From positions 10,503-74,502 of the forward strand of contig DECD01000024.1 of assembly GCA_002349055.1 (NCBI GenBank): a stretch of 64,000 bases of DNA. The letters are read 5' to 3'. Below are positions 27,701 through 43,944 of the stretch, in pieces (position 1 is the first letter of the stretch; every line of letters begins with the position of its first letter). The notes under the pieces were generated by a model that had not been told where the DNA came from, searched no databases, and was given only the letters and a program-made list of their open reading frames with translations. Position numbers and translations under genes: made by a program. This DNA comes from Bacteroidales bacterium UBA2939. GTDB taxonomy: Bacteria > Bacteroidota > Bacteroidia > Bacteroidales > P3.

Positions 27701-30700
27701 CATTGGCGATGGTACCGCCGGAGACTGTCACTTCGGTAGCACCGGTATAGGAAGCCAGGTTGCCACCGCCGTAGACATCGGCAAGGGTGCCACCGGTAAT
27801 GGTGACGCTGACATCGCCCGAAGGGGCGCCGTTGATATTGTTGCATCCGAAGACATCTCCATCGATGGTGCCATTGTTGACCGTGACGGCCACATCGCCT
27901 GCCACATTGGCTGCATGGGAACCGTCGCCGAGACCGCCACCGTAGACGTTGCCATTCACGGTGCCGTCGTCGATGGTGACGGTGGAGCCTGCTGCAGCGC
28001 CGGTGAGGCTAGCCAGGGCGCCGCCGCCGTAGACATCGACGCCTATCTGGCTGTGGCTGTTCTGCACCAGGACAGTGGTAGCTCCCACGACATTGGCCTC
28101 GCGGCCACCGCCATAGACGCTACCGGTAATCTTGGCATAATGGCCAGAGACCTCGTCGCCGATGATGACGACGGGGTTGGCCGTGACGACAGCCGTGGAA
28201 CCGAGGCCGCCGCCATAGACGCTGCCAAGGATGCTGTTGCTGCTCTTGATATGCTGGACATTCACCAGGGGCGAGGCCGAAGAGGCGCTGCTGGGAGTGT
28301 ATTCGGCTTGGTTGCCACCACCGTAGAGGTTGGTGAGAGCCAAAGAGCAGGTGCCTTCCTGGTCGAGGACGTTGACGGTGATGATGCCACCGACATTACC
28401 CTTGGCGTCGCTGCCGCCGAAGGCGTCGGTGATGGTGCCGCCGTAGAGGTTGAGGGTCACATCGCCGCTGATGGAGGCGTCGACCGTCTCGTCCACGCCG
28501 CCTGTGGCGGGATCGTCTCTCACGCCCTTGGAGCCAGCATAGACCTCATCGAAGGTGCCACCGTAGACATTGAGAGTGGTACTACCGGTGATGGAGGCCA
28601 TGTTGCAGCCGCCATAAATCTTGCTGATGGTGCTCACGCCGCACTGGATGTCGGTTTCGAGGTTGCCGGCGATGGCGGCGCGGTTGGAGCCGGCGAAGAA
28701 GACACCGATGGTCTCAGAGCAGGAGCTGGTGTGGGTGAGGGTGGTGTTGAGGGGTCCGTTGATGGAGCCGAGGATGTTGGAGCCGCCGAAGAGGGAGTCA
28801 ATGATACCGGCGTTGACGGTGAGGTCGGTACCGCCGGCGCCGATGTCGGCTGCCGCCACCTCGCCGTTACCGCCGCCGAAGATGCGTGCATAGCGGCCAC
28901 CATCGATGGTGGTACGCACGCCGTGTGCCGCTGCAGCGTCGCCGCCACCGAAGAGGTCTTCGATGGTGTTGTCGCAACCATAGACATGGACGATGGCGCG
29001 CTTGGTGGAACTCTGCGAGCCGTTTTCGGGCGCATAGCCGGCCTCGTGGCCGCCGCCGAAGACATTGGCCAGGGCGAAGGTGGGCTCACCGCTGCCATTG
29101 TTGGTGGTGTAGGAGGCCGCATTGGTGGTGTTGTGTGCCGTGGCGTAGATATTGACATTGGCATTGCCGTGCGGCGTGCCCGCGATATTGTTGGAGCCGT
29201 AGACGTTGCCGAGGATGGTGGCGCTGCCGGTGAGGGTGGCAGGATTGCCGCCGTCGGTGGCACCGATATTGACGGTAGTGTTGCCCTTGTCGGTGGCGCT
29301 GGCGTAGCGTTCGTAGCCCACGGAGGCCATCTCGCCGCCACCGTAGATATCGCCCCGGACGGTGCCAGCGGTGATGTCGATCTGGGTGTTGCCATAGACG
29401 CGTCCGGCGAGGACGTCGGCTGTCCAGGGCAGCTCCACATTGATACGGGCCTCGGTGGAGTCGTTGGCCACAGCGCGGCTGTCGCTGCTGCCGTAGCCGC
29501 CGCCGTAGACGGAGCCGAAGTAGTAGCCGCCGCTACCGATGGTGCCCACCTCGGTACCGATGGTGCCGCCGGTGATGGTGATGGTGGTGTTCTCGGCCAC
29601 CGAGCCCATCTCACCGCCGCCATAGACATTACTCTTTATGGTGCCGCCGCTGATGGTCAGCGTGGTTGATTTGGCGCGACCCATGGTAGGCCACAGGGGG
29701 TTGACGCTGCTGCCGTCCATGCCGACGATGCGTCCCATGGAGCCGGCAAAAACGTTGCCGCCCTTGGTGTGGCGCAAACAATTCTTGTGGGTACCATCGG
29801 TGAAGAACTCGGTCTTGGGGATATTGGCCTTGGCCGAAGCCGCGGCCTCGTCGGTAGCATCGGGAGCGATATAGACATATTCGCTGGTGTTGCCGATGGT
29901 GCCGCCGGAGATGTTGACGGTGATGTGGCCGTGGGTGTTGAGACCCTCATCGGGCTGCATCTTGCCGTAGTTGGGGTTGTCGGTTTGGGTGCCGGGAACT
30001 TTGGGGGGCACGAGGTAGGTGCCCACGGAGGCCAGACGGCCGCCGCCGTAGATAGAACCGAGCATGGTGCCGTCGGAGATGTTGACCTCGATGTTGCCCG
30101 AGACGACACCTGCCGTGAGGGCTTCGCCGCTGAATCCGCGGCCGCCGCCGAAGATGTTGCCGTCGACGTAGGAGGTGCCGAGGGTGCCAATCTTGGTGGA
30201 GGCGCCGCTGACGTTCACCACGACATCGCCCGTCACGTGGCCGTCCTCGCCGCCGCCGAAGATGGAGCCGTAGATCCAGCCGCCGGTGATGTTCACCTCG
30301 ACGCTGGAGATGTTGGTCCAGGTGTTGAATAAGGTACGCTGGTCGCCCTTACCGGCACCGAAGAGGTAGCAAGTGACGGGGTGGCCGTCGATTTGTGCGA
30401 GGGTGCGGGGCACGCCGAGGGTGCCGCCGCTGAAGTTCACGATGCTGCTACCCTTCACGTCGGTCTGTTCGTTGCCGCCGTAGAGGCTGGTGAGGATATG
30501 GCCGCCACTGACATCGACACGAGTGTTGCCGTAGACAACACCTGCCGACTCGAGCCATTTGCCCGGGGCGTAGGGGAAGTAGCCCGAGCCGCCGCCGAAG
30601 ACATTGCCATAGAAGGTGTGGCCGTCGGAGGCCACGCGGCGACCGCCCTTGGTCGAGGAGCCGTCCTCGTATTCTTCCTCATGGCCCGATGCAGTGCTGG

Positions 30701-33671
30701 CGTACATATCGTAGGGAGCCCACGGTGAGGCGTAGGCCCAGCTGTTGCATTCGAAGAGCGAGGGGTGGTCGGCATAGACCCATTCGGCATCGGTGTAGGC
30801 ACAGTTGAGGTCGCGCTGGGCATCGGTAGCCTGAGAGGCATCCCATCCGCAGCCTATCTGGCCGCCCTGAATCTTGACCCAGGTGTCGTGGAGCACGTGG
30901 CCGTTCTGGCTACCGCCATAGACGGAACCCTTGATGAAAGGACCACTGTGGTCGGACTCCTTGCCGATGATGACCTCGGTGTTGTTGACATAGTTGAGGA
31001 GGGGGATATTGGCGTTGGTGGCGGGGTCGCCCACGATGCCCTTACCGGCGCCGAACACCATGCCGCTGTCCATGGGCATGACGAGGGTGCGGGGGCCTAC
31101 CTTACCGGCAGCGATTTCGACGGTGGTCTTGCCGGTGTTGGCGTCACAGACGAGGTCGTCGCCGGAGGTGCTATACTTACCCACGCGAGCCATCTCGCCG
31201 CCGCCGTAGATATTACCTTTGACCCAGAACTTCTTGTCGTCAGCCGTAGCTGTCGTCCACGGTACCGTTTCCACCGACGGGTTAGTGGTATGATTCGTGA
31301 TCCAAGTCGCGTAGTCGACTTTCTGGTCGGCACCCATCACAATCTTGGGATTGGAGGTGACGAGACCTGCGTTGATTGCCGAAAAGAGGTCGTCGACCGA
31401 ATTGCCGCGGCCGCCACCAAAGACATCGTGGTTCACATGGCCTTTCACCAGGTTGATGATGGGCGTGGTGGCTGTGGAATCTAACGGACGGTAGGGGGAC
31501 AAGTTGCTGCCGCCATAGACATAGTCGACATCCAGCGCGCAGGTACCCGTTTCGGTGGAATCGATGATGATGATGATTTTGCCTTCCACGTTACCGTTCT
31601 GGTCACATCCGCCGAAAACGTTCTCAATCTTACCGCCCTTCAGGATTACCGTAATATTGCCACCGGTGCCTTGCAGTTCGGGATGAGCCTTCATATAGAC
31701 GAGGTCTTCCGGCGTGAACCTGGGGTGATCCGATGCGAGATCGGCTGCCACCTGTTCTTCCGTGGGATATTTTCTGATGTTGGCTGCGTAGTCGCCAGCT
31801 CCCAGGGAGCCGCCGAAGACGCTACCGAAGGTGCCACCTTCGATGGTGAGGGTGACGTTGCCATAGACAGTACCCAGACGGCAACCGCCATAGAGGCCCA
31901 GATACTTATCGTTGGCGGCGCAGGTCATCACCTGGTTGATTTCGGCAATGACGTCGGTATAGTTACCGCCGCAGAAGTGGTAGTCGATATCCACCTTGCC
32001 ATCATTACAAGAGCCGCCACCTTCCACGATGGTGATATTGGCGTCGCCACCGGTGACAGTACCCTGGCGGTTACAACCGCCGAAGATGACACCCACACGA
32101 CCTGACGCAAATTTGAGGTAGACCTTACCTTTTCCAATGTTGGAGGCTTTGATGACACCGTTGCCACCGCCGAAGACCTCTTGATATCGGCCACCATCGA
32201 TGACGGTGTTCACGCCCACGGCATCGGCAGCATTGCCACCGCCGAAGACCTCTTTGATGGTATTGTCGCAACCGTAGACATGAGTATAGATTTTCTTTTG
32301 CGAATCTACAAAATTATTCTCCGGCTGGTAATGAGCGTTGTGTCCGCCACCGAAGACACTGTCGAGGGCATAGGTGCGGTTGATGGAGACATCGCTCACA
32401 GCGTCATGCGTTCTGCGGAACGTCTTATAGACATGTACATAGACATTGTCCTCGGGTGTACCGTTGACGTTGTTGCAGCCGTAGACAGAGCCACGGATTT
32501 GTGCGGAACCTTCGTAGGTGCCGCTGTTGTTGCGGCCGATGTTGACCGTCACCTGGCCATGGACCAGGGCAGCCACATTGCTGTGGCCCTCGCCCAAGAG
32601 CGTCGTGTCGCCCAGGCCACCGCCATAGACTTCGCCATAGATGGTACCGGCCATTGCATTGACCGTCGTGGTCTTGCTGGCCGTATTGACTTTTTTAGCA
32701 TTGATGGAGCCGCTGTTGACATTGCCGAGGGCCGAACCACCATAGATATTACCATAGATGAGGGGTTTCTGCACGGCTTCGCTCACGATGACGCTGTCGA
32801 GTGTCACCACCACGCTGCCGTCGACACGGGTAGGCTGGCCGTAGCCGCCGCCGAAGATGCCGTGGGCCTTATTGGTCATAGAGGTGCCCACCTGGCCGCC
32901 GGTGAGGGTCACCAGGGCGTCGCCGGTCACGGTACCCGAGGTGTTGCAACCTCCGTAGATACCCCTGACCACCATGGCGGTGCCCGAGAGGGCGACGTCG
33001 GTGCCGCCGGTGCCAGCCTCGTTGCCGCCACCATAGACGACATATACCTGTCCACCGCTGACGTTCACGTCGGGTGTGCCGCCGTAGGCAGCCACGTTGC
33101 CGCCGCCGAAGACATAGTTGGCGTTGCCGCTGGTGATGTTGACCTGGACGCTGTTCTGGGGAGCGCCGTTGAGGTTGTTGCAGCCGAAGACGCTGTCGGC
33201 TATGCCACCGTTGAGGGTCACCGTCACATTGCCATAGACAAGAGCAGCAATGTCGCTCGTAGCACCATTCACGCCATTCTTCTGGCCGAGGCCACCGCCA
33301 TAGACGGAACCTTGGGCAGTACCGTTGGTGAGGGTCACCGTGGTGGTGTTGGAACTGCTGGTTCCCACGTTGGCCAAAGCGCCACCGCCGTAGACACTGC
33401 CGGTGTTTTTCACAAGCTTATTGTTCTCGTCGCGGAGACCCACTTGGGCGTTCGCCTGGTTGATGAGCACAGCGCTGTTGCCCGACACATTGGCATTGTT
33501 GCCGCCGCCGAAGATGTTGCCACCCACGGTGACATTCGTCTTCGCCGCTCTGGAGGATTCCTGGGCCGAGGCGACCGAAAAATGAACGTTGAGGATTGAA
33601 ATCAATGCCACGCAAACCAGTCGCGTCAGCCAGATGTTTCGGTTCATATTATGGTGTAGTTGTTGTTTCAT
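12771..33671 (-). CDS. Giant (6966 aa) secreted GGG-rung repeat protein with no recognisable T9SS sorting domain
   Basis: Complete 20901-nt ORF in the track. N-terminal signal peptide ...LVCVALISILNVHFSVASAQ. Nearly the whole length is short rungs with [VIL][FY]GG[GSA] (GNIFGGGNNANVSG, SVYGGGALANVG...). These are organised into higher-order modules repeated 2-8 times. The C-terminus is three Ig-like modules. No PNP / GIY-type CTD motifs are present. The plus-strand ORFs across it are antisense shadows. Confidence 0.9.
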   Translation of the reverse strand: MKQQLHHNMNRNIWLTRLVCVALISILNVHFSVASAQESSRAAKTNVTVGGNIFGGGNNANVSGNSAVLINQANAQVGLRDENNKLVKNTGSVYGGGALANVGTSSSNTTTVTLTNGTAQGSVYGGGLGQKNGVNGATSDIAALVYGNVTVTLNGGIADSVFGCNNLNGAPQNSVQVNITSGNANYVFGGGNVAAYGGTPDVNVSGGQVYVVYGGGNEAGTGGTDVALSGTAMVVRGIYGGCNTSGTVTGDALVTLTGGQVGTSMTNKAHGIFGGGYGQPTRVDGSVVVTLDSVIVSEAVQKPLIYGNIYGGSALGNVNSGSINAKKVNTASKTTTVNAMAGTIYGEVYGGGLGDTTLLGEGHSNVAALVHGQVTVNIGRNNSGTYEGSAQIRGSVYGCNNVNGTPEDNVYVHVYKTFRRTHDAVSDVSINRTYALDSVFGGGHNAHYQPENNFVDSQKKIYTHVYGCDNTIKEVFGGGNAADAVGVNTVIDGGRYQEVFGGGNGVIKASNIGKGKVYLKFASGRVGVIFGGCNRQGTVTGGDANITIVEGGGSCNDGKVDIDYHFCGGNYTDVIAEINQVMTCAANDKYLGLYGGCRLGTVYGNVTLTIEGGTFGSVFGGSLGAGDYAANIRKYPTEEQVAADLASDHPRFTPEDLVYMKAHPELQGTGGNITVILKGGKIENVFGGCDQNGNVEGKIIIIIDSTETGTCALDVDYVYGGSNLSPYRPLDSTATTPIINLVKGHVNHDVFGGGRGNSVDDLFSAINAGLVTSNPKIVMGADQKVDYATWITNHTTNPSVETVPWTTATADDKKFWVKGNIYGGGEMARVGKYSTSGDDLVCDANTGKTTVEIAAGKVGPRTLVMPMDSGMVFGAGKGIVGDPATNANIPLLNYVNNTEVIIGKESDHSGPFIKGSVYGGSQNGHVLHDTWVKIQGGQIGCGWDASQATDAQRDLNCAYTDAEWVYADHPSLFECNSWAYASPWAPYDMYASTASGHEEEYEDGSSTKGGRRVASDGHTFYGNVFGGGSGYFPYAPGKWLESAGVVYGNTRVDVSGGHILTSLYGGNEQTDVKGSSIVNFSGGTLGVPRTLAQIDGHPVTCYLFGAGKGDQRTLFNTWTNISSVEVNITGGWIYGSIFGGGEDGHVTGDVVVNVSGASTKIGTLGTSYVDGNIFGGGRGFSGEALTAGVVSGNIEVNISDGTMLGSIYGGGRLASVGTYLVPPKVPGTQTDNPNYGKMQPDEGLNTHGHITVNISGGTIGNTSEYVYIAPDATDEAAASAKANIPKTEFFTDGTHKNCLRHTKGGNVFAGSMGRIVGMDGSSVNPLWPTMGRAKSTTLTISGGTIKSNVYGGGEMGSVAENTTITITGGTIGTEVGTIGSGGYYFGSVYGGGYGSSDSRAVANDSTEARINVELPWTADVLAGRVYGNTQIDITAGTVRGDIYGGGEMASVGYERYASATDKGNTTVNIGATDGGNPATLTGSATILGNVYGSNNIAGTPHGNANVNIYATAHNTTNAASYTTNNGSGEPTFALANVFGGGHEAGYAPENGSQSSTKRAIVHVYGCDNTIEDLFGGGDAAAAHGVRTTIDGGRYARIFGGGNGEVAAADIGAGGTDLTVNAGIIDSLFGGSNILGSINGPLNTTLTHTSSCSETIGVFFAGSNRAAIAGNLETDIQCGVSTISKIYGGCNMASITGSTTLNVYGGTFDEVYAGSKGVRDDPATGGVDETVDASISGDVTLNLYGGTITDAFGGSDAKGNVGGIITVNVLDQEGTCSLALTNLYGGGNQAEYTPSSASSASPLVNVQHIKSSNSILGSVYGGGLGSTAVVTANPVVIIGDEVSGHYAKITGSVYGGGREANVVGATTVLVQNSHSQIGVDVYGGGALASLTGAAAGSTVTIDDGTVNGNVYGGGLGDGSHAANVAGDVAVTVNNGTIDGDVFGCNNINGAPSGDVSVTITGGTLADVYGGGNLASYTGATEVTVSGGTIANVYGGGKGNVAEDKAANVGSSEITINGGTISTGVYGGCNAKGTVSGNSSVSLVNGTVGSDGIRATGVFGGGYGQNTLVSGNVSVTLDGATLYCDLYGGGALGNVNTNNSNTTTVNVLSGSITGDVYGGGLGDADNLYAAQVNGVVTVNIGENNGGDYNGYATFNTYGYKGGCIFGGNNMYGSPMDNVNVNIYGTAHTARNVVSGDQFAIDQVFGGGNLADFPNNGKTITTRIYGCDNTVRRVFGGGNAAATPSVVLTVDGGHFDYGWGGGNGESGVDADVNGTVTFLYSGKWEHSVVGGSNAHGNITGGAPHISEDPSKCGSAIADELYCGSTSTVVVGSKTTQTTCAYGTYRNIYGGSKENDYYGNITLILAGATATNVYGGSKGTATTPADVRAFTNAKKPTGEGVPDSVGQGGNVTIILRGGTFDNVYGGCDVNGTVEGIINIIVDSVNSECPLVVHNIYGGGHDAAYTPKTTLAHVGNKPATPVVTINSGSVTKKNGNGGNVFGGGQGAGATVTGNPVVNIGNAAGGKVTVEGTIYGGGDQAQVTGRTTVNVQKKGTRAKTGSIYGGGNRAAVTNSTDVIIGDGSAGPSITGDVYGGGALAAVNTASRADTCHTKLVLNNGTITGNVYGGGLGNASIAANVNAPVQVTVNGGTVTGAVYGCNNVNGAPQRTVNVDVYGTDAQPFSGFAIGSLFGGGNQAAYGSTPTVKVHNCSNVSIGDVYGGGNQATVAGTNVSIYGGDSIGNVYGGGNGIGVATNFTMVSGNAVTNIYGGTIGNVFGGNNTSGNILGTIAVTVNAQGDSDPNGSSSPCTMKVGNVYGGGNLAAYAPTATAALYPNTSPTVTFTKGTINGSIYGGGKGSATNVNAGLVTSNPIVLMNGADARVNGNIYGGGEMASVGSYTRNPSTQAVTACAANTGLTTVTVSAGKVGPHPLKMPTDFGHVFGGGKGVVADTTTDTGNPLIPHLNYVNNTLVTINGTALVKGCVYGGAEAGHVKGNTHVVIDENCQIGAGWDNSQATDEARDLDALYTASQWETSSSLFECHAWPYTSPYNVYDKYATSGYYATGVSADGGDQTGHDGHTFYGQVFGGGSGFFPYLGKDHTGTKDSAIWIRSSGRVEGNTLVEIKGGHILTSAYGGNEVTDVLGDAVITMTGGTLGVPRTLDQIAAHPVTCYLFGAGKGDARIFFNEWTNVRNATVTVSGGWVYGSVFGGGEDGHVLGNATVNISGSEGSNAQAIAGSATKIGTLGTSYVDGNIFGGGRGFSGEALTAGVVGGNIEVNITGGTMLGSVYGGGRLASVGTYLVPVSDPNYGQLRPNAGGNTHGHITVNISGGTIGNNAEYTYPSDAQKASNGDLRNTSYQESNAGNRLLHTKGGNVYGGSMGRIVAMDGSTHNPRWPSLGRAKQTTVNISGGIIKSSVYGGGEMGSVSQNTTVNVTGGTIGTLVPAYTTTSGHTGGDAYYFGSVYGGGYGSLDNTLDDNDSVTAATTDYATGKRAQADATPAVLAGRVYGNTFVNVTGGTLLGEVFGGGEMASVGYEQTGSRGNTNVNIGEAGPTGTGATFSGTGMVFGANNVAGTPYGNTSVHIYRTAHGADAAHNLYPTGITNNEELATNALSQTYALQAVYGGGNLAAHTPYAANGTTNVYVHYCEENTICDLYGGGNAANTKNNHIIIDGGRIHRLFGGGNGETSAANVSGTARTDIHGGLIDTVFGGSNTRGNIGTVALNLDNDRADAGPSCENLIGVIYGGGNHAPGSGGEITIACGDYHFDEIYGGANLASITGNVTLNIYGGTYNYVYGGSRGRLDDPNVAGDQSVASDISGNVTLNLYGGTIANAFGGSNAKGNIGGVITVNVLDDENVECPLNLTNLYGGSNVATYTPADATITSPVINVKHIPNGITGNVFGGGKGDKSTINAADGTSSRDAADLGRCTSNPQVNIGDNVAGHTAWVKGSTVRNYNDTYDSLPPTSGNVYGGGELAEVYGTAYVNMQNANSVIEGNIYGAGKGYTGDSIAANVSVDTYVNITDGTVKKNVYGGGELASVGTFGPAPGGGYTMTHGNTHVTITGGFIGADPNDHATENDAFGNVYGAGYGYAGKSTIGGYTYSYAYYNYVGDANVTIGGTARVYGSVFGGAENGHVWRNTSVKIKDGEIGTELTAAEHAETSEGVGANIYTGNVYGGGRGIDESDAQHHHSLTAGRVFGNTYVEVTGGIIHHDVFGGGSLASVGDTIHDIVGGAHDIMGNPISGTYSFDDDMNSATAAITRAYKKGDPVTGTGLAHVRILGGRIGNTGHNDGYVFGSGRGMAGTGSDDEYYHMAYAHNTFVFIGDTTIEGVRSVADIRGAVFGGGSNGHVSQNAHVKMTNGVIGGKTAETYTAMGVPLPATVDATVNGVDYYSGIDAADTLTDHWGRMTTGHHTFLGNVYAGGRGVDHNIDEHDVDHGLSRFAGRVFGNAKVEISGGIVYHSVYGGGSMASVGDYTNGPEIANMIAVAGTGKTFVNISGTNTRIGTNGRNNGRVFGGARGVARSDGFYNTMAFVNITNVTVDGSAQVRGCVFGGGENGRVLDSTLVTISGSCEIGNGKRKDDNRWINDYVGNVYGGGRGVDLDQNNLPNLTTGWVKNATHVVISGGHVHHNVFGGGSLASVGRQTGVGYVNTTPTLTSPEGRSWVDVTGGLIGIVIDATDSSQNLYGNVFGAGRGRAGVGIMYGNCWDSATCVTNAVVRINYTDAPSSTNYITGNVYGGGYNGHVNNSTDVRITKGKIGTAGDRNYGSLEGNVFGGGCGEDRYEAYLTRDGKYITNAQRASGTGHTDIAYRRNDRSVIRTYYNTPRSFADSLAVTDSLSVRSGLVYGNTNVLINAASASDVQILHHVYGGGANASVGDYWIASHDYTSGSIILEKGDVFPLTASLSSVFSCPTNHAGSDVSSGNCHVTVTGGTIGTSGHNNGMVFGASRGEIGAPGSIYDSIAYTNATFVTIGTSGTITDSVTPNPLINGSVYGGGENGHGYGDANVNIYSGSIGDHGDRSGSNTESIVGAKTYNRAKKLEDLIEAAVDEATKATLQAELDATLAYLSFCGNVYGGGCGTDKYVDVNDGNKEKYNPRAGVVYGNTNVTMTGGYVERAIYGGGSIANIGRRQGAFTYHNADPNTHFALSWPVEFHYRPGTGKATINVSGNARIGYSGKDNGDIFGASRGEAGDPADMAPFANVDTTIVTINIPVPEGFTEATYYGNGSSTPGLLGVNPKNDHFTPLIAGSVYGGAENGHVIRGTNVTLQSGIVGHSIYGGGKGKGTYQTTLRHITDGDVSQGQYWHKDDDSIAYIYSLTAGRVYRNTHVTMTGGRVIRNIYGGGNMASVGVGNYAGGPGDYREAGYGERWTSDNFYLRDSLAHTGHTYVTVTGGIVGILNPSKPKDSFKDDLPLGNVFGGCRGEAAPSVSPTLSPRHAYAPAFFSGYVNHAHVVIGDSTSAVDAAGPRLFGSVYGGGQDGHVRVETDVKVYRGEIGVTYTNPGDAKDLVGVPSEADIRAGRDMTDDAHWVARGNVYGAGSGIGKYTKKEVSGAVTETYASSSGSVTCSTYVYIKGGTIHRNVYGGGALASIGPLVLPGNPVPQPETTKTIVDIRGGVIGSAADFAGGSYTYNYPASGDDPSAEGYYPAGSVTFDWTSYGSCVYGASRGLQEANPTDFATDWWTFVTVRDNAHVFGSVFGGGELGTVKKDTRVKMLGGNVGGDLYGAGRGIPGDSYKNYCDVENTYVTIEGGQIHGDVYGGARDGHVTGNTNVLVKGAAVIGDEGVAAVDEHGNPGYWAFDGNVFGGGRGSGDKIDTDGDSDIDDHDEYRINKTSGRVGGNTKVVVEAGTIHGSIFGGGRLALTGVDVDGGITSFLKDIETGIYDSVNHGMATVRVLGGTIGDASDVNLLKCDWSVGDVLGSGKGDIDNYEDIYAGRVMNSRVYIVGGATVRGSVFGGGEMAGIGWWNDNGVFVPHTGTSTVHIKDTLGAAPTIGLAAEFTYDKPTHAALNERTGNENPGAWTMYNTDGTILHTCTGNVYGASQGDVDITYPHWVSMARSRQSTVTIDGGNILSCVYGGGEQGIVTGNTHVTINGGTIGTAVGTIGSGGYYFGDVYGAGYGSDEAADTYGNDSTAARTALSLNWTADVLAGRVYGNTTVDLLGGTVNGDVYGGGSMASVGDEKPGQTANGNTYVNVGSTSQYDNPALGPTIHGSVFGANNYSGTPFGNTNVHIYSTAHTDTDPLVYDRSGTNVTVVVGDQYPSGLKAVAEDVNVLDANDLQALQGEANESLVAAKRYAIKEVFGGGNKANHVPLNTSTGTTLVYIHDCDENTVKDVYGGGNAAATQNNHVIVEGGHLDRIFGGGNGSGGVAANVVGTATTEIHGGIYTQVFGGSNTLGNIGLTKLTVDDEGDCPLLIKEAFGGGNNAPGGNGEITLKCGSSFNTFYAGGSKANLGTPENPVTLTLNVEGGRVMHLFGGCQGTDDTPANIYGDVIVNLHGGSVENLYGGSDVNGNISGTITVNVDIDPDYSCPDGLNLVNVYGGGRNAAYTPDDPFRGSPLVNIMNNRYYSRESGEPTTNMDDSAYVQIRNVFGGGLGSTATVTSYPRVIVGGFPDGYGYDRSARVFGNLYGGGSAAPIRGNTLVMVRSSVIGFDSDDSIGSFHTGNIFGGGLGTTARVSGETYIGVFGQSDIKSNVYGGGSAGIVDGNTEIQMGFQEQVLPPEFIAYLDDDCAASDKIKGSFSCATPNVRFSYTTDGSTPPVPATNETLYTDANDDFCFGWGDIVQCIAYIPSEGGIDSTMMPSIAAFDKAPMPLISIDGDNVTFDGCKGARIYYTLNGDDPTTTVSATNFLWGTTVENPGSSFTIGATDVVKAIAEQRGCFNSNVTSLQVDAPVITFDGVHCTITAPEGSTITYTTDESTPVTNMLGATSHGTYVPSNTASFNVSSSQDVTVKAVCQKPGYQPSKIGAAVHRVQ
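12774..13490 (-). other. Three tandem ~80-aa Ig-like C-terminal modules (CHB_HEX_C / Fn3_assoc-like by motif) of the 6966-aa protein
   Basis: Track translation shows VRFSYTTDGSTPPV..., GARIYYTLNGDDPTT...VVKAIAEQRG and STITYTTDESTPVT...VTVKAVCQKPGYQPS. The x[IF]xYT[LT][DN]Gs.P ... V.A.a pattern recurs three times. This is motif-level resemblance only; no HMM was run. Confidence 0.5.
23685..24240 (-). repeat. Intragenic long-range direct repeat, copy 2 (partner at 29889-30430)
   Basis: A 51-bp perfect match (GTTGCCGATGGTGCCGCCGGAGATGTTGACGGTGATGTGGCCGTGGGTGTT) occurs at 23685 and 29889. It is followed by about 195 bp at roughly 90% identity by eye, then further conserved blocks. Confidence 0.8.
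29889..30430 (-). repeat. Intragenic long-range direct repeat, copy 1 (partner at 23685-24240)
   Basis: Same evidence as copy 2. The offset is 6204 nt (2068 codons) at the 51-mer and 6225 nt (2075 codons) after a 21-bp indel. Both offsets are in frame. Confidence 0.8.
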
Positions 33672-33743
33672 CTTTCTGGATTTTCTGATTGTTCGGATTC
33701 TTCGGAGTGTTCAGAGTATTCAGAGTGTTCAGAATATGCGGAT
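33672..33743. repeat. 9-bp periodic tandem array (8 units, core TTC[TGA]GA) filling the whole 71-bp spacer between the 877-aa and 6966-aa genes
   Basis: CTTTCTGGA TTTTCTGAT TGTTCGGAT TCTTCGGAG TGTTCAGAG TATTCAGAG TGTTCAGAA TATGCGGAT. Confidence 0.9.
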
Positions 33744-36376
33744 TATTCGTCTTGGATAGTTACTGAGGAGTTGCCGTTGACAGCGCCGTTGTTGCCGCCG
33801 CCGTAGACATTGCCGGTGATGGAGGCTCCCTGACGGAGGAAGACCGCGGGGTTGCCGGTGACGGTGGCTGTGGAGCCGTAGCCACCGCCGAAGACGTTGC
33901 CGCTGACGACACCGGTGCCTGTGATGGTCACCACGGGGTAGTCGGGCGTTCCCACGGGGGCGGAGTAGGCAGCATTGTTGCCACCACCATAGACATCATG
34001 GTTGATGGTGCCAGCCGTGACATTCACCGCCACGGTGCTCTGGGGAGCGCCGTTGGCGTTGTTGCAGCCGAAGACATTCTCCACGGTGCCGCCATTGACA
34101 TTCACCTGCACAGCTCCGTTGACCTGAGCTGCGTGGGAGCCGTCGCCGAGGCCACCGCCGTAGAGGTCGCCGTGAATGGTGCCCTTATTGAGGGTTACCA
34201 CGGTGCTCTTGTCTGCAGCGTTGATATTGCCCTTAGCCGAGCCGCCATAGACGTCGCCATAGATGGCGGGCTCGTTGGCTATGCTGGAAGAGCCGATGGT
34301 GACGGTGACGTCGTCGGAGGTGGCGGTGCTGAGGCCATAGCCGCCACCGTAGACACCGTCTTCATAGTTGTCATCGTCGGTGCCTATGGTGCCGCCATTG
34401 ATGGCGACGGTGATGGCGCCGCCGACGGTGCCGTTGGTGTTGCAACCGCCGTAGAGACCGCCGGTGATGGTGCTGGTGGTCGAGGCGCCGTTGTTGACAT
34501 AGACCGACACATCGCCGGTGACGCCGCCAGAGGAGACGTCGTTGCCGCCGCCGTAGACTTTTTCCACCGTGCCGCCGTTCATACGCACGGAGGAGCTGCC
34601 CACATTGGCCTGGTTGCCACCGCCGAAGAGGCGGGTGGCGGTGCCGTTGATGACATCGACTGTGGCGAGGCCCGAGACGGGAGCCACGTTACCGCCGCCG
34701 AAGACGTCGGTGGCGTGGCTTACGTCCAGCGCGAACTGCACGGTGGCACTGCCGGCGACAGCAGCAGCGTTGCCACCGCCGTAGACATTGCCCACGACAT
34801 AGGGATGGGGATAACTGGTCAGGAGCGACATGGTGTCGCCGCCCGGTGTGCGGTTGGCCGCTGCGCCGATGATTACTCTGGGATTGGAGGTCACGGTAGC
34901 GGTGCCACCCTTGGCGCCACCATAGACGCTGCCCCGGATGCCCAGGATTTCGGTAGGACCATCCTGCACGGCATCGGCATGCGCCACATGGATGATATTG
35001 ACGCGGGGCGAAGTGGGATTGACCTGCGCACCGCTGACGGTGATTTTGTTGGGAGTATAGGCCGTCTCATTGCCGCCGCCATAGATATTGGTGATATCGA
35101 GCTTGCAGGAGCCCTCGAGGTCGAAGACGTTGACGGTGATGAGGCCCGTGATGTTGCCATTGATATTGGAGCCGCCGAAAGCATCGGTGATGGTACCACC
35201 ATATATATTAAGGTTGACGTTGCCGGTGATATTGGCCGCTTTCTCGGCCGTACCTTTCGAGCCGCCGTAGACCGCCTCGAAGGTGCCGCCGTAGACGTTG
35301 AGGGTGACGTCGCCGTTGATGATTTCGGCCTTGTTGGAGCCGCCGTAGAGTTCGTCGACATAATCCACGCCGCATCCCACGGTGAGTTCCACGTTGCCGT
35401 GGGTCGCGGCCTCATTGGAGCCGCCGAAGAGCGAGATGATGTATTCTTCCTGATCGTCGCTACAAGGACCGGTCTTCAAGACGGTGAGACTCTTGATACC
35501 GCCAAGGATGTCACCCGCGGTGTTGGAGCCAGCGAAAGCAGCGGTGAAGTAGCCACCCTCGATGGTGGAGGTGGCGTTGCCGTAGATGTTGGCCGCGCGG
35601 TAGGGGTTGGTATTTTCGTCCCACGCCGCCGCGGGGTTGGTGAGGGTATGACCGTCGCCGCCGCCGAAGAGGGTGTCGATGCGGCCACCCTCGATGGTGA
35701 CATAGACGTTGGCCTTGATGGTGTCGGAGCCCGACACGCTACCTACGTCGGCAGCGCGGCCGCCGCCGTAGACCATCTTGACGGTGTTTTCGCAGTTGTG
35801 GATAAAGACTGTGGTGGAGTAACGGTTGGTCACCGCCGGCACGTAGGCCGCCTCGTTGCCGCCCCCGTAGACGGCCTGGATGGCGAAAGTGGTGTTTGTA
35901 TGCCAATCCGAAGCACTGGGAGAGACAGTGGTCTTGAACGTTTCGAAGTCGGCGAAGGTGCCCACCAGGTTGTTGGGAGTTCCGGAAGTGTGGGCGGTCT
36001 GCCAGATGTCGACCTTGACGTTGTTGCGGGGAGTGCCTGCGATATTATTGCAGCCGAAGACATAGCCTCTGATGGTGGCGCTGCCGCTGATGTCGCCTGT
36101 GCCCTCTTCTTTCTGTCCGATATAGACGTGCACGCCGCCTTTGACGAGGGGTTCGACGAGTGGGTCTGCCTGACCGCGGCCGCCGCCGTAGACGCTACCC
36201 GTCACGGTGCCGGAGAGGATATATACCCTGGTGGAGTCGGAGGCGTTGGTGCCCACGTCGGCCAGGTTGCCGCCGCCGTAGACGTCGCCGTCGACAGTGA
36301 CATGCTGGGCCGTTGCCGTGCCGCCCATAAGCAGCATTGCCAGCATCAAAGCCATTCTTGTTGTTTTTCGGTTCAT
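33743..36376 (-). CDS. 877-aa secreted GGG-rung repeat protein, a single-module relative of the 6966-aa protein
   Basis: Complete ORF. Signal peptide MNRKTTRMALMLAMLLMGGTATAQ. The mature protein starts directly with rungs (HVTVDGDVYGGGNLADVG). It contains one copy of the Cys-bearing module found five times in the 6966-aa protein (CNNIAGTPRNNVKVDIWQTAHT ... HNCENTVKMVYGGG ... GSCKLDITNIYGGGNETAYTP). It ends in rungs (GNVYGGGNNGAVNGNSSVTIQDE). Confidence 0.9.
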   Translation of the reverse strand: MNRKTTRMALMLAMLLMGGTATAQHVTVDGDVYGGGNLADVGTNASDSTRVYILSGTVTGSVYGGGRGQADPLVEPLVKGGVHVYIGQKEEGTGDISGSATIRGYVFGCNNIAGTPRNNVKVDIWQTAHTSGTPNNLVGTFADFETFKTTVSPSASDWHTNTTFAIQAVYGGGNEAAYVPAVTNRYSTTVFIHNCENTVKMVYGGGRAADVGSVSGSDTIKANVYVTIEGGRIDTLFGGGDGHTLTNPAAAWDENTNPYRAANIYGNATSTIEGGYFTAAFAGSNTAGDILGGIKSLTVLKTGPCSDDQEEYIISLFGGSNEAATHGNVELTVGCGVDYVDELYGGSNKAEIINGDVTLNVYGGTFEAVYGGSKGTAEKAANITGNVNLNIYGGTITDAFGGSNINGNITGLITVNVFDLEGSCKLDITNIYGGGNETAYTPNKITVSGAQVNPTSPRVNIIHVAHADAVQDGPTEILGIRGSVYGGAKGGTATVTSNPRVIIGAAANRTPGGDTMSLLTSYPHPYVVGNVYGGGNAAAVAGSATVQFALDVSHATDVFGGGNVAPVSGLATVDVINGTATRLFGGGNQANVGSSSVRMNGGTVEKVYGGGNDVSSGGVTGDVSVYVNNGASTTSTITGGLYGGCNTNGTVGGAITVAINGGTIGTDDDNYEDGVYGGGYGLSTATSDDVTVTIGSSSIANEPAIYGDVYGGSAKGNINAADKSTVVTLNKGTIHGDLYGGGLGDGSHAAQVNGAVQVNVNGGTVENVFGCNNANGAPQSTVAVNVTAGTINHDVYGGGNNAAYSAPVGTPDYPVVTITGTGVVSGNVFGGGYGSTATVTGNPAVFLRQGASITGNVYGGGNNGAVNGNSSVTIQDE

Positions 36377-36390
36377 ATCTTGTTGTGTTT

Positions 36391-36445
36391 TATTCTGAGT
36401 GTTCTGAGTATTCTGAATTTTCTGAATAATCTGAATATTCTGATT
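36391..36445. repeat. 9-bp periodic tandem array (6 units, TnTTCTGAn) in the 69-bp spacer between the 1119-aa and 877-aa genes
   Basis: TATTCTGAG TGTTCTGAG TATTCTGAA TTTTCTGAA TAATCTGAA TATTCTGAT. Confidence 0.9.
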
Positions 36446-39400
36446 TTATTGTATCGTTACTGTGGTGGCGCCGGAGACGGTGCCTCTGTTGCCGCCGGCG
36501 AAGACGTTGCCACGCACGTAGGTGTTACCTTGGAGGAGGACCGAGGTGGTGGCGTTGGCAGGGGTGGTGTTGTAGACCGTGCTCTCGTCGCCGCCGCCAT
36601 AGACGTTACCCGTGGTGGCATCGCCCTGAGTGCCTATCTCGCTGTCACCCTTGATGGTGAGGGTCACGGTGCCGGAGACAGAGCCGAGGTTGGTCTTGCT
36701 GAGGTCGATGTCGGTTGTGACCTTCCCTTCTGCAAACGCAGGATCGAGGCTACCATTTGATGGGAAAGTTCCATTTTTCCACTGGAATGTGGTGGTGCCG
36801 GAAAACACGCCAGGCTCGAATATACCCGCAGCACTGTTGAAATTGGGATTTATCGTGAATCCTTCATTTCTTACTTCAAGCGTAGGCACCGATGCAGAGT
36901 AACCAGCTCCAAACACATTACCTTTTACTGTGCAGCCGTCAAGTTCAGAAGTTACATTGCCCACTACCTTACCCAGGCTACCGCCGCCATAAAAATTGTT
37001 CTCAATGGTGCATCCTTTCAGATTTGACTCCACGTCGTTGCATTGCGCCAGCGAGAAGGAGGCATACTTGATATAGAAGCGGGCACCCGTCTTACCAGAA
37101 CTCCAAATGAAGAACTCGTAATCGAAGTCGGTAGCCACACCAGGACCTTTCTGTCCGTATTTGGTATCAGGGGCATAGGTTGACGTTCCGTCGTAATATT
37201 TACCACGCTCGTTTTGGTGAGAGCCTGGTTTTGTCGGGCAGTAGTAGTATTTCTGCAAATCGTTGAAGTTGTAGTTTATTGCATCGAAATACTTCTTTCT
37301 GGTATAGGACAATCCACCGAAACCGGCACCGAAAAACTTTCCAAAAACACATCCTTCAGCGTTGGTAGTGACCTTTTTCCCTTGTTGCATATTTCCGAAC
37401 TTGGGACCACCGCAGTAGGTGGTCACGTGGCTGTTGTAGATGTCGACGGTGACGTGGCCAGTGATGGGTTTGGCATCGTTGGTGCCGCCGCCGTAGAAGT
37501 TATCGATATCGGCATTGTATATCTGCCACCGCACATTGCCGTTGATTGCTTCCTGCGATGCTCCTGCCACCTCGTGGAAGTAGCCGCCGCTGATGTAACA
37601 TTCGGCGTTGTCATTTCTTACTATAGCATTGGCATTGTAGGTGCCGGTGAGGTAAAATCCGGGGTATTCGCCTCCCGTCACCGACACTGGCACATGGGGT
37701 GTCGACTGGCTACCATCACCATGGGTGCCCATGCCAAATTCATAAATCCACACATTTCCACCTACATGGATATAGTAAACCTTTCCATTAACCTGGTCCC
37801 TCTGAGTAGACACAAACTGGTCGAAGACGCCGCCGAGCAGGATGAGCGGAGCATCTACCTTACCGGAATTATTATTGTTGTCGGAACTGCCCGTATTCTC
37901 GTACTCAAACTGTGGGAAATAAAGCAATGCGGTATTGGTAATTTCGAACCAACCTTTGGTTTTATAGATGGTCATATTGCAAATGAGACTGGCACCATTG
38001 GGTCTCTGGGCCTGAGAGGTGCCGATAACATTGATGAAGTCGTAACGGATAGGCGACACATTCAATCGACCTATATGGTGGTAGATGAGGCTGTAGTCGG
38101 GTTCGTGGTCGTTGTCCGCGTCCACCGACATCATAGTGAAGGGCTTGGTGCCATTCGACGGCACACCGTTCAGGTGGAAGTTTCCGACCAGAACGACCGC
38201 ATTGTCATAGACTGTTGTCCCCGAACCAATACCGGTGATGCTGGTTCTTATTTTTTGACCGTTGAATTGGGTGGTGTTGTCAACAGCCTGGGTACCTGTC
38301 TGGGTGACGTTCTGTTTGCCACCGTAGTCTTTGTTGTACACCACATCGTAGTTAGGGTCGGCAACATATATCGCGTTGCCCCAGTAGGGCTCGATGGTGA
38401 TGGAGGTGACGCCGTAGGGCACGTCGAAGTAGGCCCCTTGCGAGAAGACGCGGTGGCTGACACTGTAGAGGTCCTTGTTCGAACTCTTGCGGTCGGCGTA
38501 GTTGTGGTTGGGGTAGTCGGTGATGCCCGAAGTGGGGTAGTTGGCCGATGTGTAGGGGTCGCCAGCGATGGGGGTGATGGCTGTAATCTTCCAGCCGGTG
38601 ACCGCCTTGTTGCCGGTGTAGTTGCCGGAGCCCACGTCGTTGTAGTAGGGCAGCTGCACCTTGTCGTAGTTGTAGTTGAAGCGGTCGAAATCTTTGTCGG
38701 TGCGGGTAAGGGTGAGGCTGCTGGTGGTGATGCTGGCACCCGAAGGGGCATTGCTCCCCACCCCACTGATGGTCACCGCCAATGTCCGGCCCAACTTGCC
38801 GCCATGATTTCTTCCCACGGTGGCGCTGTCGGGGGCGTTGTCGGTGTCGGGGTTGATGATGGAAGGATAGGTTCCTTGGGCTTTCAGTATGGGATAGGGT
38901 TTGGGATTGGCATTGGTGCGGTCGGCGGTTTCGAGCACCCACTTGGCCATATCACCCGGCGCAACGGTGGTAGTAGCAGTTGAGGCATAGATGGCAGCCA
39001 GCTTCTTGTTGCTGTTGAGCAGCAGGCGATAGAACTCGAAACGGTTCAGGTATTTCTCCTCCACGGCCAGCACGCTATTGTAATTATCCTTGGTGAGATG
39101 ACTGGAGGGCAATTGGTCGTAAGCGTAATAGTTGAATGTATTCAAGCCATCTATCACGTTAGCAATATTTTTGCCTCCATAGACGGGAGATTTGGTAGTG
39201 CCGTCGGTGATGTCGCCGTAGAACATGCAGTTCATCACCATGGTACGAATGTCAGATGCTGTGGAGGCGTAATTGTTGTAGCCCACAATACCACCGACAT
39301 TGGTGCCGCCGGTGATGTTGGCGTAGGAGTAGCAGTTGACGACGCGGGCGGTGCCGCCTAGGGAACCCACGAGGCCGCCAGTGTAGGCGGTGCCCTTCAC

Positions 39401-39805
39401 CGTACCGTCCAGGATGCCGCAGTTGTAGATGCGGGAGGCACCGACAGCGTTGGCGGCGATGGCACCTGCATTGCCTGTGACATTGATAGAAGTGGTACTG
39501 ATAATGACATTCTTGATGACGGCATCCTCGATATAGGTGAAGAGCGGCTTGTCCCAAGTGCCTGTGATGGTTGCCAATTGGCCATCGATGATGCCTTTGA
39601 AGGGGTTGTCGGCAGTGGAGCCGATGCCACCTGACGGTGTGCCTGTTGTGGAGAAATCGCCGGCGAGGACATAATTACCTGTCTGGCTGGTGATATCAGA
39701 GAGATCATGTATCGTCGTCTGGCTCCATGAGGCTGTGGGCAAGAGGGCTGCCAGCAGCAACATCAAGAATCTTGATTTTTGGTTATATTTAACGTTAATT
39801 GCCAT
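36446..39805 (-). CDS. 1119-aa secreted protein: N-terminal GLUG-motif domain, central non-repeat region, C-terminal GGG rungs
   Basis: Complete ORF. Signal peptide ...LLLAALLPTASWSQ. GLUG-like repeats TGGLVGSLGGTARVVNCYSYANITGGTNVGGIVGYNN. It is a paralog of the next gene upstream (shared MVMNCMFYG, LNSNKKL, KWVL, YPILK, GWKIT and EPDY blocks). It ends GNVFAGGNRGTVSGATTVTIQ. Confidence 0.9.
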   Translation of the reverse strand: MAINVKYNQKSRFLMLLLAALLPTASWSQTTIHDLSDITSQTGNYVLAGDFSTTGTPSGGIGSTADNPFKGIIDGQLATITGTWDKPLFTYIEDAVIKNVIISTTSINVTGNAGAIAANAVGASRIYNCGILDGTVKGTAYTGGLVGSLGGTARVVNCYSYANITGGTNVGGIVGYNNYASTASDIRTMVMNCMFYGDITDGTTKSPVYGGKNIANVIDGLNTFNYYAYDQLPSSHLTKDNYNSVLAVEEKYLNRFEFYRLLLNSNKKLAAIYASTATTTVAPGDMAKWVLETADRTNANPKPYPILKAQGTYPSIINPDTDNAPDSATVGRNHGGKLGRTLAVTISGVGSNAPSGASITTSSLTLTRTDKDFDRFNYNYDKVQLPYYNDVGSGNYTGNKAVTGWKITAITPIAGDPYTSANYPTSGITDYPNHNYADRKSSNKDLYSVSHRVFSQGAYFDVPYGVTSITIEPYWGNAIYVADPNYDVVYNKDYGGKQNVTQTGTQAVDNTTQFNGQKIRTSITGIGSGTTVYDNAVVLVGNFHLNGVPSNGTKPFTMMSVDADNDHEPDYSLIYHHIGRLNVSPIRYDFINVIGTSQAQRPNGASLICNMTIYKTKGWFEITNTALLYFPQFEYENTGSSDNNNNSGKVDAPLILLGGVFDQFVSTQRDQVNGKVYYIHVGGNVWIYEFGMGTHGDGSQSTPHVPVSVTGGEYPGFYLTGTYNANAIVRNDNAECYISGGYFHEVAGASQEAINGNVRWQIYNADIDNFYGGGTNDAKPITGHVTVDIYNSHVTTYCGGPKFGNMQQGKKVTTNAEGCVFGKFFGAGFGGLSYTRKKYFDAINYNFNDLQKYYYCPTKPGSHQNERGKYYDGTSTYAPDTKYGQKGPGVATDFDYEFFIWSSGKTGARFYIKYASFSLAQCNDVESNLKGCTIENNFYGGGSLGKVVGNVTSELDGCTVKGNVFGAGYSASVPTLEVRNEGFTINPNFNSAAGIFEPGVFSGTTTFQWKNGTFPSNGSLDPAFAEGKVTTDIDLSKTNLGSVSGTVTLTIKGDSEIGTQGDATTGNVYGGGDESTVYNTTPANATTSVLLQGNTYVRGNVFAGGNRGTVSGATTVTIQ

Positions 39806-39929: not shown

Positions 39930-40033
39930 AAAAAACTATCAAAATTTCTTGCTACCTGATTTTTTTCTCCGACAGATTGTAAAAGATTTTAAAAGAATTC
40001 ATCACTCATCATTCCTCACTCATCACTTTCTTT

Positions 40034-40085
40034 TTCTCCTGCTCGCGCTCCGCGCTCACGAAATCTATAAATCTTATAAATTTTC
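40034..40085. repeat. Copy 2 of the 48/52-bp direct repeat
   Basis: TTCTCCTGCTCGC-GCTCCGCG-CTCACGAAATCTATAAATCTTATAAATTTTC. Confidence 0.85.
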
Positions 40086-40152
40086 CCGCTACGCGGATTG
40101 CCTCTCAATTCCTAATTTCTAATTCCTAATTCATCATTCCTAGCTACCTGCT

Positions 40153-40185
40153 AATTTTCATTTTTCAATTTTCAATTTTCAATTT
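40153..40185 (-). repeat. Heptamer tandem array (TTGAAAA)n, about 4 units, in sense orientation to the 1173-aa gene, starting 7 nt after its stop
   Basis: The minus strand reads TGA CTATTA AATTGAAAATTGAAAATTGAAAAATGAAAATT. Confidence 0.9.
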
Positions 40186-40190
40186 AATAG

Positions 40191-43712: not shown

Positions 43713-43792
43713 TGCTTCCTGTTTTTTTAGTTATACGACAAAACACAATCGCTCAAGCATTTGTGGAGTGCATGGCCATTGTGGTCGGTAGT

Positions 43793-43800
43793 GCAAATAT
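43793..43800 (-). promoter_or_regulatory. -7 box TATATTTG upstream of the 1173-aa gene
   Basis: The minus strand reads AAATTTGTATATTTGCAC, 81-88 nt upstream of ATG 43712. Confidence 0.5.
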
Positions 43801-43812
43801 ACAAATTTTTTT

Positions 43813-43846
43813 TTGAAATTGAAAATTGAAAGTTGAAAATTGAAAA
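43813..43846 (+). repeat. Heptamer tandem array, 5 units (TTGAAA TTGAAAA TTGAAAG TTGAAAA TTGAAAA)
   Basis: Read directly. It lies 13 nt from the -7 box of the 1173-aa gene, on the opposite strand. Confidence 0.9.
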
Positions 43847-43869
43847 TTTCGATGCCCTCCGTACCCTCT

Positions 43870-43902: not shown

Positions 43903-43944
43903 CTGACAACGCATCTGTTAAATTTAACTTAAAATCGTCTAATA

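Follow-up and report, generated by a model that had tools for sequence, protein, structure and literature searches.

We analysed a 64,000-nucleotide stretch of contig DECD01000024.1 from Bacteroidales bacterium UBA2939 (assembly GCA_002349055.1, positions 10,503 to 74,502 of the forward strand), hereafter the window, which carries an array of five genes for large beta-solenoid proteins, several of which begin or end directly in bare solenoid rungs of nearly the same sequence. Six-frame analysis places the five genes co-directionally on the minus strand, where they encode, in this order, proteins of 1173 amino acids (aa; 40191-43712), 1119 aa (36446-39805), 877 aa (33743-36376) and 6966 aa (12771-33671), followed by a left-edge giant of at least 4158 aa (2-12475) whose last codon lies at the window edge. 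From the 1173-aa gene onward, the intergenic gaps measure 385, 69, 71 and 295 bp, and a promoter and terminator scan detected no minus-strand terminator-like site within the short gaps of the array; the promoter part of the scan was uninformative, as its consensus is that of sigma-70, which does not apply to Bacteroidota. Every one of the five products carries a Sec signal peptide with a basic n-region, a hydrophobic core and an A/G-x-A/G cleavage site followed by Q. Genes of this solenoid family occupy about 43 kb of the 64-kb window. The G+C content is 0.58-0.65 over the Gly/Ala-rich solenoid genes (12000-40000) and 0.44-0.47 over the 1173-aa gene and its upstream region (40000-45000), and the base composition of the solenoid genes gives rise to long shadow open reading frames (ORFs) on the opposite strand, such as the 920-aa one at 33998-36760 on the plus strand, which are artefacts.

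The heads and tails of the five proteins are distinct. The 1173-aa protein (signal peptide ending in GVIWG before Q) consists of a GLUG/Peptidase_M26_N-like head and an irregular solenoid, its match to Pfam PF05342 reaching 38.6 bits (cut-off 27.7) and being confined to profile positions 181-247. Its paralogue, the 1119-aa protein, scores 15.4 bits against the same model, under the cut-off, and is 75% identical to the product of positions 2076-5522 in the related locus L005; a peptidase domain is absent from both of these heads. The 877-aa protein is a single solenoid segment with a few super-repeats, preceded by a signal peptide (36308-36376, minus strand) that is cleaved at TATA before Q. 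In the 6966-aa protein, cleaved at SVASA before Q, some 80 more rungs of the VYGGGN type follow the first canonical rung, the last canonical one lying at 13560-13721 (minus strand) and giving way to a linker and C-terminal immunoglobulin-like (Ig-like) domains (CHB_HEX_C_1 and Fn3_assoc in Pfam; 12774-13543, minus strand). The left-edge giant opens with a globular N-terminal domain (GYYTLTNGRLWW...), has modules of the family's solenoid from about residue 480 to 2050 as well as a GLUG-like region, and ends in a type-A type IX secretion system (T9SS) sorting domain (2-202, minus strand; Por_Secre_tail, 36.5 bits, cut-off 27). An earlier note on this DNA had singled out this giant as the only one of the five proteins with a T9SS sorting domain, which the Por_Secre_tail match confirms.

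The same note had claimed that the 877-, 1119- and 1173-aa proteins terminate in a near-identical final rung, and that the mature 877- and 6966-aa proteins start with a rung of the same type. Translation reproduced all of its quoted peptides exactly and bore out both claims, the first also with a hidden Markov model (HMM) of the C-terminal end. The 877-aa protein ends in ...GNVYGGGNNGAVNGNSSVTIQDE (last rung at 33746-33814, minus strand; 62.3 bits to the C-end HMM), the 1119-aa protein in ...GNVFAGGNRGTVSGATTVTIQ (36449-36511, minus strand; 46.6 bits, residues 1046-1119) and the 1173-aa protein in ...GNVFGGGNNGSVSGATTVTIGSGE (40194-40265, minus strand; 71.8 bits, residues 1108-1170), each followed by its stop codon, with 0-4 residues beyond the final rung. 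At the other end, the mature 877-aa protein starts with Q-HVTVDGDVYGGGNLADVG, so that its first rung (36251-36307, minus strand) directly follows the signal peptide, and the mature 6966-aa protein starts with QESSRAAK-TNVTVGGNIFGGGNNANVSGNSAVLI, its first rung (33462-33539, minus strand) following a 9-residue overhang and matching an N-start HMM at 103 bits (residues 46-183). The terminal consensus pair is nearly identical (G.A.V.GNVYGGGN.G.V.G.T.V.I vs. A.V.V.GNVYGGGN.A.VGG..TV.I), and the similarity of first and last rungs exceeds chance. Among non-redundant relatives, conservation amounts to 74.6 bits over 27 aligned positions for the final rung (n = 87) and 74.4 bits over 27 positions for the first rung (n = 32, with about 12 bits of inflation from the small sample), compared with 39.9 bits over 27 positions for internal rungs (n = 1588), about 23 bits of which are due to the selection motif itself.

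These terminal rungs belong to a larger repeating unit. The super-repeat is about 240 aa long (alignment A2) and runs from a canonical rung through VYGGGALA, VYGGGLG and VFGCNN.NG.P rungs to VYGGGN.AAY, P.V.I and G.TA.VTGNP elements and on to the next canonical rung; its best-conserved element is the boundary rung, V.GNVYGGGN.G.V.G.T.V.I. Since the repeats blurred the junctions when the 877-aa protein was aligned by BLAST to the 6966-aa protein and to the giant of locus L009, we relied on HMMs of the terminal signatures (C-end, 64 aa; N-start, 123 aa). Both signatures also occur inside the 6966-aa protein, at residues 1807-1952 and 2484-2670. At the first of the internal junctions that we describe (residues ~2521-2580; 25932-26111, minus strand), a final-type rung, a loop KKGTRAKT and a first-type rung follow one another (...VEGTIYGGGDQAQVTGRTTVNVQKK-GTRAKT-GSIYGGGNRAAVTNSTDVIIGDG...VYGGGALA...), and the loop resembles the RAAKT at the N-terminus of the mature 6966-aa protein. 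In the AlphaFold2 model, residues 2400-2790 form one continuous rigid solenoid (predicted local distance difference test, pLDDT, 79; predicted template modelling score, pTM, 0.85), with regular strands and a pLDDT of 78-88 at the junction itself, which is the covalent (cis) counterpart of the proposed docking in trans discussed below. At the second junction (residues 1847-1870; 28062-28133, minus strand), one rung is common to both signatures, the C-end HMM matching at 1807-1870 and the N-start HMM at 1847-1952 (85 bits). In loci L008, L009 and L010, moreover, a single giant carries the counterpart of the 877-aa protein, signal peptide included, as a module fused at its N-terminus (42% identity over residues 4-875), and the "last" rung of that module runs on there into further rungs. 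Together, the cis junctions and the fused orthologues indicate that a solenoid can legitimately continue from a final rung into a first one.

We also found the absence of a capping domain, another claim of the earlier note, borne out for the 877-aa protein in its predicted structure. The AlphaFold2 model (24-row alignment) is an all-beta solenoid with a pLDDT of 82 and a pTM of 0.83, its first strands beginning at residue 27 and its last strand comprising residues 871-874 of 877; DSSP assigns strands only over residues 25-60 and 844-877 of the model, with no helix or hairpin cap at either end. Foldseek against the PDB returned no significant neighbour (best E 0.4), the closest non-significant ones being beta-helix adhesins, RTX (repeats-in-toxin) proteins and Ag43, and the fold assignment therefore stops at "beta-solenoid".

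The same kind of ending prevails across a large family. Homologues of the 877-aa protein number 777 and come from Bacteroidales metagenomes, almost all of them unnamed; a scan of species-representative genomes found carriers in rumen and gut metagenome-assembled genomes (MAGs) labelled Bacteroidales, Prevotella or Bacteroidaceae, the closest being RUG11969 (82% identity). A profile of the C-terminal 120 aa matched 3326 clusters at 50% identity (E<=1e-3), or 1009 at 1e-30, and the best 150 cluster representatives are giants of 1600-7950 aa with 20-70 profile-matching stretches each; no Pfam or NCBIfam model covers the repeat. Among the best 120 homologues, 64 end 19-30 aa past the start of the last xVYGGGN motif, and 76 related loci contain 79 solenoid ORFs whose C-terminus is visible, 63 of them with a bare-rung ending and the others with a linker and Ig-like domains (Flg_new_2 or CHB_HEX_C) after that rung. 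In the best 150 giant representatives, 109 have a bare-rung ending and 38 end otherwise, for instance in Ig-like/BACON-like domains or in a Pro/Gln-rich tail that closes with a conserved peptide; four of the 150 carry a type-A sorting domain (three found by HMM, one by eye among those 38), located 1700-2100 aa beyond the last rung, as in the left-edge giant. Many relatives extend past the final rung, by Pro/Gly/Ser stretches that reach ~30 aa or by entire Ig-like domains; after the last strand, about 90% of members have 0-8 residues. Among 111 non-redundant members, 90 close with E (35), P (31), Q (15) or D (9), whereas a terminal K or R predominates in neighbouring genes. This terminal Pro/acidic bias extends to members that end in Ig-like domains (...IQP, ...QQP). 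We additionally observed a sub-family (homologues P0059-P0120 and about 17 of P0121-P0270) in which a Pro/Gln-rich low-complexity tail after the last rung ends in a conserved peptide ...N(A/V)ATE(S/A)xQxR(S/T)(V/I)TxxR, e.g., ESGFTRTVTPVRR; none of the window proteins has this peptide, which may be a distinct C-terminal signal for sorting or anchoring.

Taken together, these observations are probably best explained by the module-boundary architecture of a modular, Sec-exported beta-solenoid family, in which adjacent products have look-alike uncapped ends because their chains start and stop at super-repeat boundaries. Each polypeptide would begin at such a boundary, directly after signal-peptidase cleavage between A and Q, and would end at another, followed by 0-8 polar, acidic or Pro residues, while genes would fuse or split at boundary rungs, as suggested by an 877-aa protein that is free-standing here and a fused N-terminal module elsewhere. 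Richardson and Richardson in 2002, and Bryan and colleagues in 2011, are said to have dealt with capped beta-solenoids and with negative design against aggregation at the edges, where the question is likewise how open solenoid ends escape runaway stacking. Unlike such capped solenoids, the 877-aa model has no helix, hairpin or irregular cap at either end, and the window family shows only short acidic/Pro tails and a probable N-terminal pyroglutamate, which may serve as a minimal negative design in place of caps. The proteins themselves would be components of surface or extracellular fibres, acting together with a T9SS-anchored partner. Several points weigh against this interpretation. It is architecture by itself that suggests the surface fibre, and shared ancestry of boundaries explains why the end rungs are alike but not why the boundary rung is conserved beyond the others, a conservation that could reflect docking, folding nucleation or recognition. 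In addition, both head-protein orthologues of L005 lack 15-18 aa of the last rung, a sign either of tolerance of change or of an assembly artefact, and the array partner statistics given below are biased to short arrays.

An alternative, which we consider unlikely but take seriously, is that each bare C-terminal rung stacks on the N-terminal rung of the next protein (1173/1119 onto 877 onto 6966, with the 877-aa protein possibly also stacking head-to-tail) to give a continuous solenoid held non-covalently, the subunits that lack a sorting domain riding on a T9SS partner for export or anchoring. Docking of rung on rung in trans would be geometrically plausible, judging from the models, as the termini match the two halves of cis junctions that are modelled as a continuous solenoid, the overhangs are short, and the fusion of the 877-aa module to a giant in other genomes follows Rosetta-stone logic; the roughly 30 bits by which terminal rungs are better conserved than internal ones also agree with it. 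Operon context adds to this. Across the related loci, N-termini fall into recurring classes (rung start, GLUG/M26_N head, several other globular heads, and the GYYTLTNGRLWW head), and the usual gene order is one or two rung-ended head proteins of 1100-1700 aa followed by a rung-start giant, with rung-ended heads directly upstream of rung-start giants in at least 30 loci. Sorting-domain giants recur in the same operons: L040, L060, L064 and L071 have an orthologue of the left-edge giant at the 3' position that it holds here (L026 and, on the opposite strand, L039 have one elsewhere), and a fragment of one in L047 keeps its sorting domain. A second, unrelated giant family, without solenoid rungs in its visible part, lies upstream of solenoid giants in nine loci (5' ends in L022, L031, L036, L041, L056, L061, L063, L065 and L073), only 0-30 bp away in L031, L041, L056 and L063 and farther in the other five. 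These second giants end in a divergent type-A sorting domain (...GIYIVNxxKIAVTK) that TIGR04183 detects in two of five members (29.5 and 25.4 bits, cut-off 23) and that Pfam misses.

Against docking, the bare end is the default of the family even without a partner nearby. Of 13 arrays with both ends visible, 11 lack a rung-start partner for their rung-ended proteins, and a same-strand sorting-domain gene is present in only 2, although these figures are biased to short arrays because 10-kb flanks hide the far ends of most giants; the bare rung end also occurs in singletons. The tails (up to ~30 aa) or Ig-like domains that follow the same rung in many relatives, and the 9-residue N-terminal overhang of the 6966-aa protein, likewise sit poorly with end-to-end stacking, and the window offers three donor C-ends against two acceptor rung starts. 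Nor can stacking reach the sorting domain, since the C-terminus of the 6966-aa protein is Ig-like and the N-terminus of the left-edge giant is globular, leaving no rung-to-rung chain to the anchor. A literature search on T9SS hitch-hiking, or on cargo without a sorting domain, yielded nothing relevant, and we know of no precedent for T9SS hitch-hiking. The intermolecular helix continuation that the earlier note had drawn from the matching rungs thus stands in part: the ends are alike and uncapped and the cis junctions are continuous, but docking is not needed to explain the likeness. Its proposal of piggy-back export is weakened as a general rule by the array counts above, that is, by the 11 of 13 arrays without a rung-start partner and the 2 of 13 with a sorting-domain gene. 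A fuller version, in which the rung interfaces are real and the 1173- and 1119-aa heads cap a (possibly polymerising) 877-aa shaft that continues into the 6966-aa protein as a fibre anchored by the T9SS giant, strikes us as doubtful, and equally doubtful is the corollary that the subunits of such a fibre without a sorting domain would be threaded lengthwise through the T9SS translocon or assembled outside.

Improbable, in our assessment, is the view that the C-terminal 60-120 aa (VFGCNN...AAY...VTGNP...final rung) form a new export signal, read by T9SS or by another machine. The organism uses T9SS, as we conclude from the Por_Secre_tail domain of the left-edge giant and from a type-B CHU_C signal (35.3 bits) in a divergently transcribed sixth giant of 3066 aa (45775-54975, plus strand; with an fn3 domain), which, together with a tryptophanase-like gene, lies upstream of the array. 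The product of L062 3-4115 has a terminal domain similar to that of this 3066-aa protein, which is adjoined by no PorP/SprF-like gene and followed by an integrase gene (55354-56289).

For the bare-rung proteins, the search for divergent sorting domains proposed in the earlier note (TIGR04183 and TIGR04131) revealed none. The whole 877-, 1119- and 1173-aa proteins matched no T9SS family in Pfam or NCBIfam at E<=1, their last 150 aa matched no sorting-domain family in these libraries at E<=10, and CHU_C (TIGR04131/PF13585) was not matched in any of the three; no type-C (ChiA-like, cl41395) model is known to us among the libraries searched. Against a type-A HMM of our own, built from 15 seeds from related loci and cross-checked with TIGR04183, the bare-rung termini scored <=3 bits, the level of unrelated proteins. 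A narrower HMM with 5 seeds was dropped because it missed the divergent domains of the upstream giants. A sorting domain hidden behind a frameshift was likewise ruled out, none being present in any frame of the intergenic DNA, and the last 600 aa of the 6966-aa protein, with its Ig-like C-terminus, contain neither a type-A nor a type-B T9SS signal.

Such a new signal would accord with conservation that is strongest at the extreme C-terminus, with a terminal profile match that is the best one in about 30 of the 150 giants, and with a last strand TKVIVNG, resembling motif E, in many relatives. T9SS signals outside types A and B do exist, such as the type-C signal of ChiA (PMC10202324), and short three-strand sorting domains of Prevotella intermedia (43-55 aa, with motifs B, D (GxY/GxN + Ile) and E) are functional, the last 22 aa of Hbp35 sufficing for secretion (PMC11969387). 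In these short domains a Lys or Arg near the C-terminus (motif E) is absolutely conserved (PMC11969387), whereas the last strands of the window proteins (SSVTIQDE, ATTVTIQ and ATTVTIGSGE) contain no basic residue and the family typically ends in E, P, Q or D rather than in K or R. We therefore rejected, on motif grounds, a minimal sorting domain inside the last rung, which is also made unlikely by the acidic/Pro-rich tails, by HMM scores at noise level, and by the presence of the same element at N-termini and internally. For a C-terminal signal of any kind, the first rung poses a further difficulty, being equally conserved and of the same sequence, which such a signal leaves unexplained; the element also recurs at internal super-repeat boundaries, and in about 20-25% of members it is not terminal at all, Ig-like domains or long tails coming after it.

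It appears very improbable that the proteins without a sorting domain simply stay in the periplasm or in the lumen of vesicles, with uncapped ends that have no partner, even though they carry only a Sec signal and no known export signal and many arrays have no sorting-domain partner. A solenoid of about 280 rungs would be hard to fit into the periplasm, since its length would be about 130 nm (an estimate based on ~24 aa and 0.48 nm per rung), the heads (GLUG, lectin-like) and Ig-like tails are those of extracellular adhesins, and the genes are linked in operons to T9SS-anchored giants.

Finally, we considered how the split genes are laid out. The 1119- and 877-aa genes share a reading frame and are separated by one stop codon, and the spacer between them (36376-36448), read in frame, gives a Q/N-rich translation that stems from 9-bp repeats. 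The leader between these two genes (36391-36443, minus strand) consists of 5.9 copies of a 9-bp tandem repeat that fills nearly the whole 69-bp gap, and that between the 877- and 6966-aa genes (33673-33737, minus strand) of about 7 copies in a 71-bp gap; the unit reads approximately CAGAAYAYT / CTGAAYACT on the minus strand, with four pattern matches found against none expected by chance. The 9-bp unit was not found in the 76 related loci, where other short tandem units (7, 9 and 11 bp) occur upstream of family genes in L064, L048 and L073, and such leaders may be regulatory or variable in copy number. The split layout (two head genes, a protein of ~890 aa and a giant) is kept in RUG11969 (82% identity) and RUG429 (43%), which argues against an assembly accident. 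In L005, from RUG11969, the closest relative, with head genes at 2076-5522 and 5898-9209, what the shortened head proteins lack is the QGNTYVRGNVFAGGNRGT turn of the last rung, the last strand VSGATTVTIGSGE being kept, and the change reflects either genuine recombination between rungs, in frame, or repeats that collapsed during MAG assembly. It is scarcely credible that a single giant gene, decaying or mis-assembled, left the split genes as its fragments and that their bare ends are artefacts of stop codons or repeat collapse: the shared frame, the fused orthologues, the highly repetitive DNA and the in-frame loss in L005 would fit, but each gene has a complete signal peptide with an A-x-A site before Q, the layout recurs in RUG11969, RUG429 and independent metagenome assemblies, and hundreds of relatives stop at the same rung position. 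It is similarly unlikely that the family as a whole is an assembly artefact of repetitive DNA, as it is seen in hundreds of independent assemblies.

Comparison with known systems places the array near several of them without a full match to any. Like SprB and RemA of Flavobacterium johnsoniae, from the same phylum, the proteins have a Sec signal with Gln at position +1 and resemble repetitive fibrillar adhesins of several thousand residues, and the type-A signal of the left-edge giant and the type-B signal of the 3066-aa protein recall giant T9SS adhesins; unlike these, four of the five array proteins and about 97% of the family giants lack a type-A or type-B domain, and the rung type matches no Pfam or NCBIfam model. 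Long parallel beta-solenoids with Gly-rich turns and an adhesin-like build are shared with type V passengers, both of autotransporters (such as Ag43, pertactin and Fap2) and of the TpsA kind (EtpA, FHA), and with chlamydial Pmp proteins, and the conserved rungs at the ends bring to mind the "autochaperone" rungs conserved at the C-terminus of autotransporter passengers. The likeness ends there, with no C-terminal beta-barrel, two-partner secretion (TPS) domain, Pmp or Haemagg_act match and with Foldseek E>=0.4: the 877-aa model ends in solenoid, 3 residues past the last strand, where a classical (type Va) autotransporter has its barrel, no autotransporter family of Pfam is matched among the 877-, 1119- and 1173-aa proteins, and there is no TPS (Haemagg_act) match in Pfam that would point to a TpsA protein. 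The recurrent neighbours of the arrays are other giants only, with no outer-membrane transporter, accessory gene or other conserved non-giant neighbour in 76 loci. RTX/type 1 secretion fits no better, given the Sec signals and a repeat of ~24-29 aa with xVYGGGN rather than a GGxGxD nonapeptide, and with the RTX structure a fold neighbour only at a non-significant E of 0.4.

The operon order resembles the tip, tip, shaft, adaptor and anchor of subunit-built fibres such as the strand-exchanging type V pili of Bacteroidia, chaperone-usher pili and curli, with their templated stacking of CsgA/CsgB solenoids, and complementary N- and C-terminal beta elements could likewise continue one fold between subunits; unlike in pili and curli, there is no lipoprotein signal, Arg-protease site, usher or nucleator gene, or conserved neighbour other than giants. 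Piggy-back export has a counterpart in the Tat (twin-arginine translocation) pathway, where a signal-less partner rides on a signal-bearing one (HybO/HybC, PaoABC), but this is an analogy only, with a different membrane and a different machine, and the T9SS reviews consulted describe nothing comparable.

The general kind of protein, fibrillar-adhesin-like beta-solenoids, is already known; the family is large and unannotated, and what is unusual about it is that, in a T9SS-using phylum, the family as a whole has no known export signal. Large secreted proteins of Bacteroidota are thought to reach the surface either as lipoproteins or through T9SS by way of a sorting domain at the C-terminus. That rule is broken by a family of at least 3300 clusters, many of its members 5000-8000 residues long, from T9SS-bearing Bacteroidales of the rumen and gut, which points either to an unrecognised route of export or assembly (a new signal, hitch-hiking or rung stacking) or to very large solenoids kept within the envelope. 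The fuller docking version, if true, would introduce rung stacking in trans as a new way of assembling fibres and would make hitch-hiking known for T9SS for the first time. The defined super-repeat and its terminal rung meanwhile provide an annotation handle on an unmodelled family that makes up a sizeable share of the coding capacity of the genomes that carry it.

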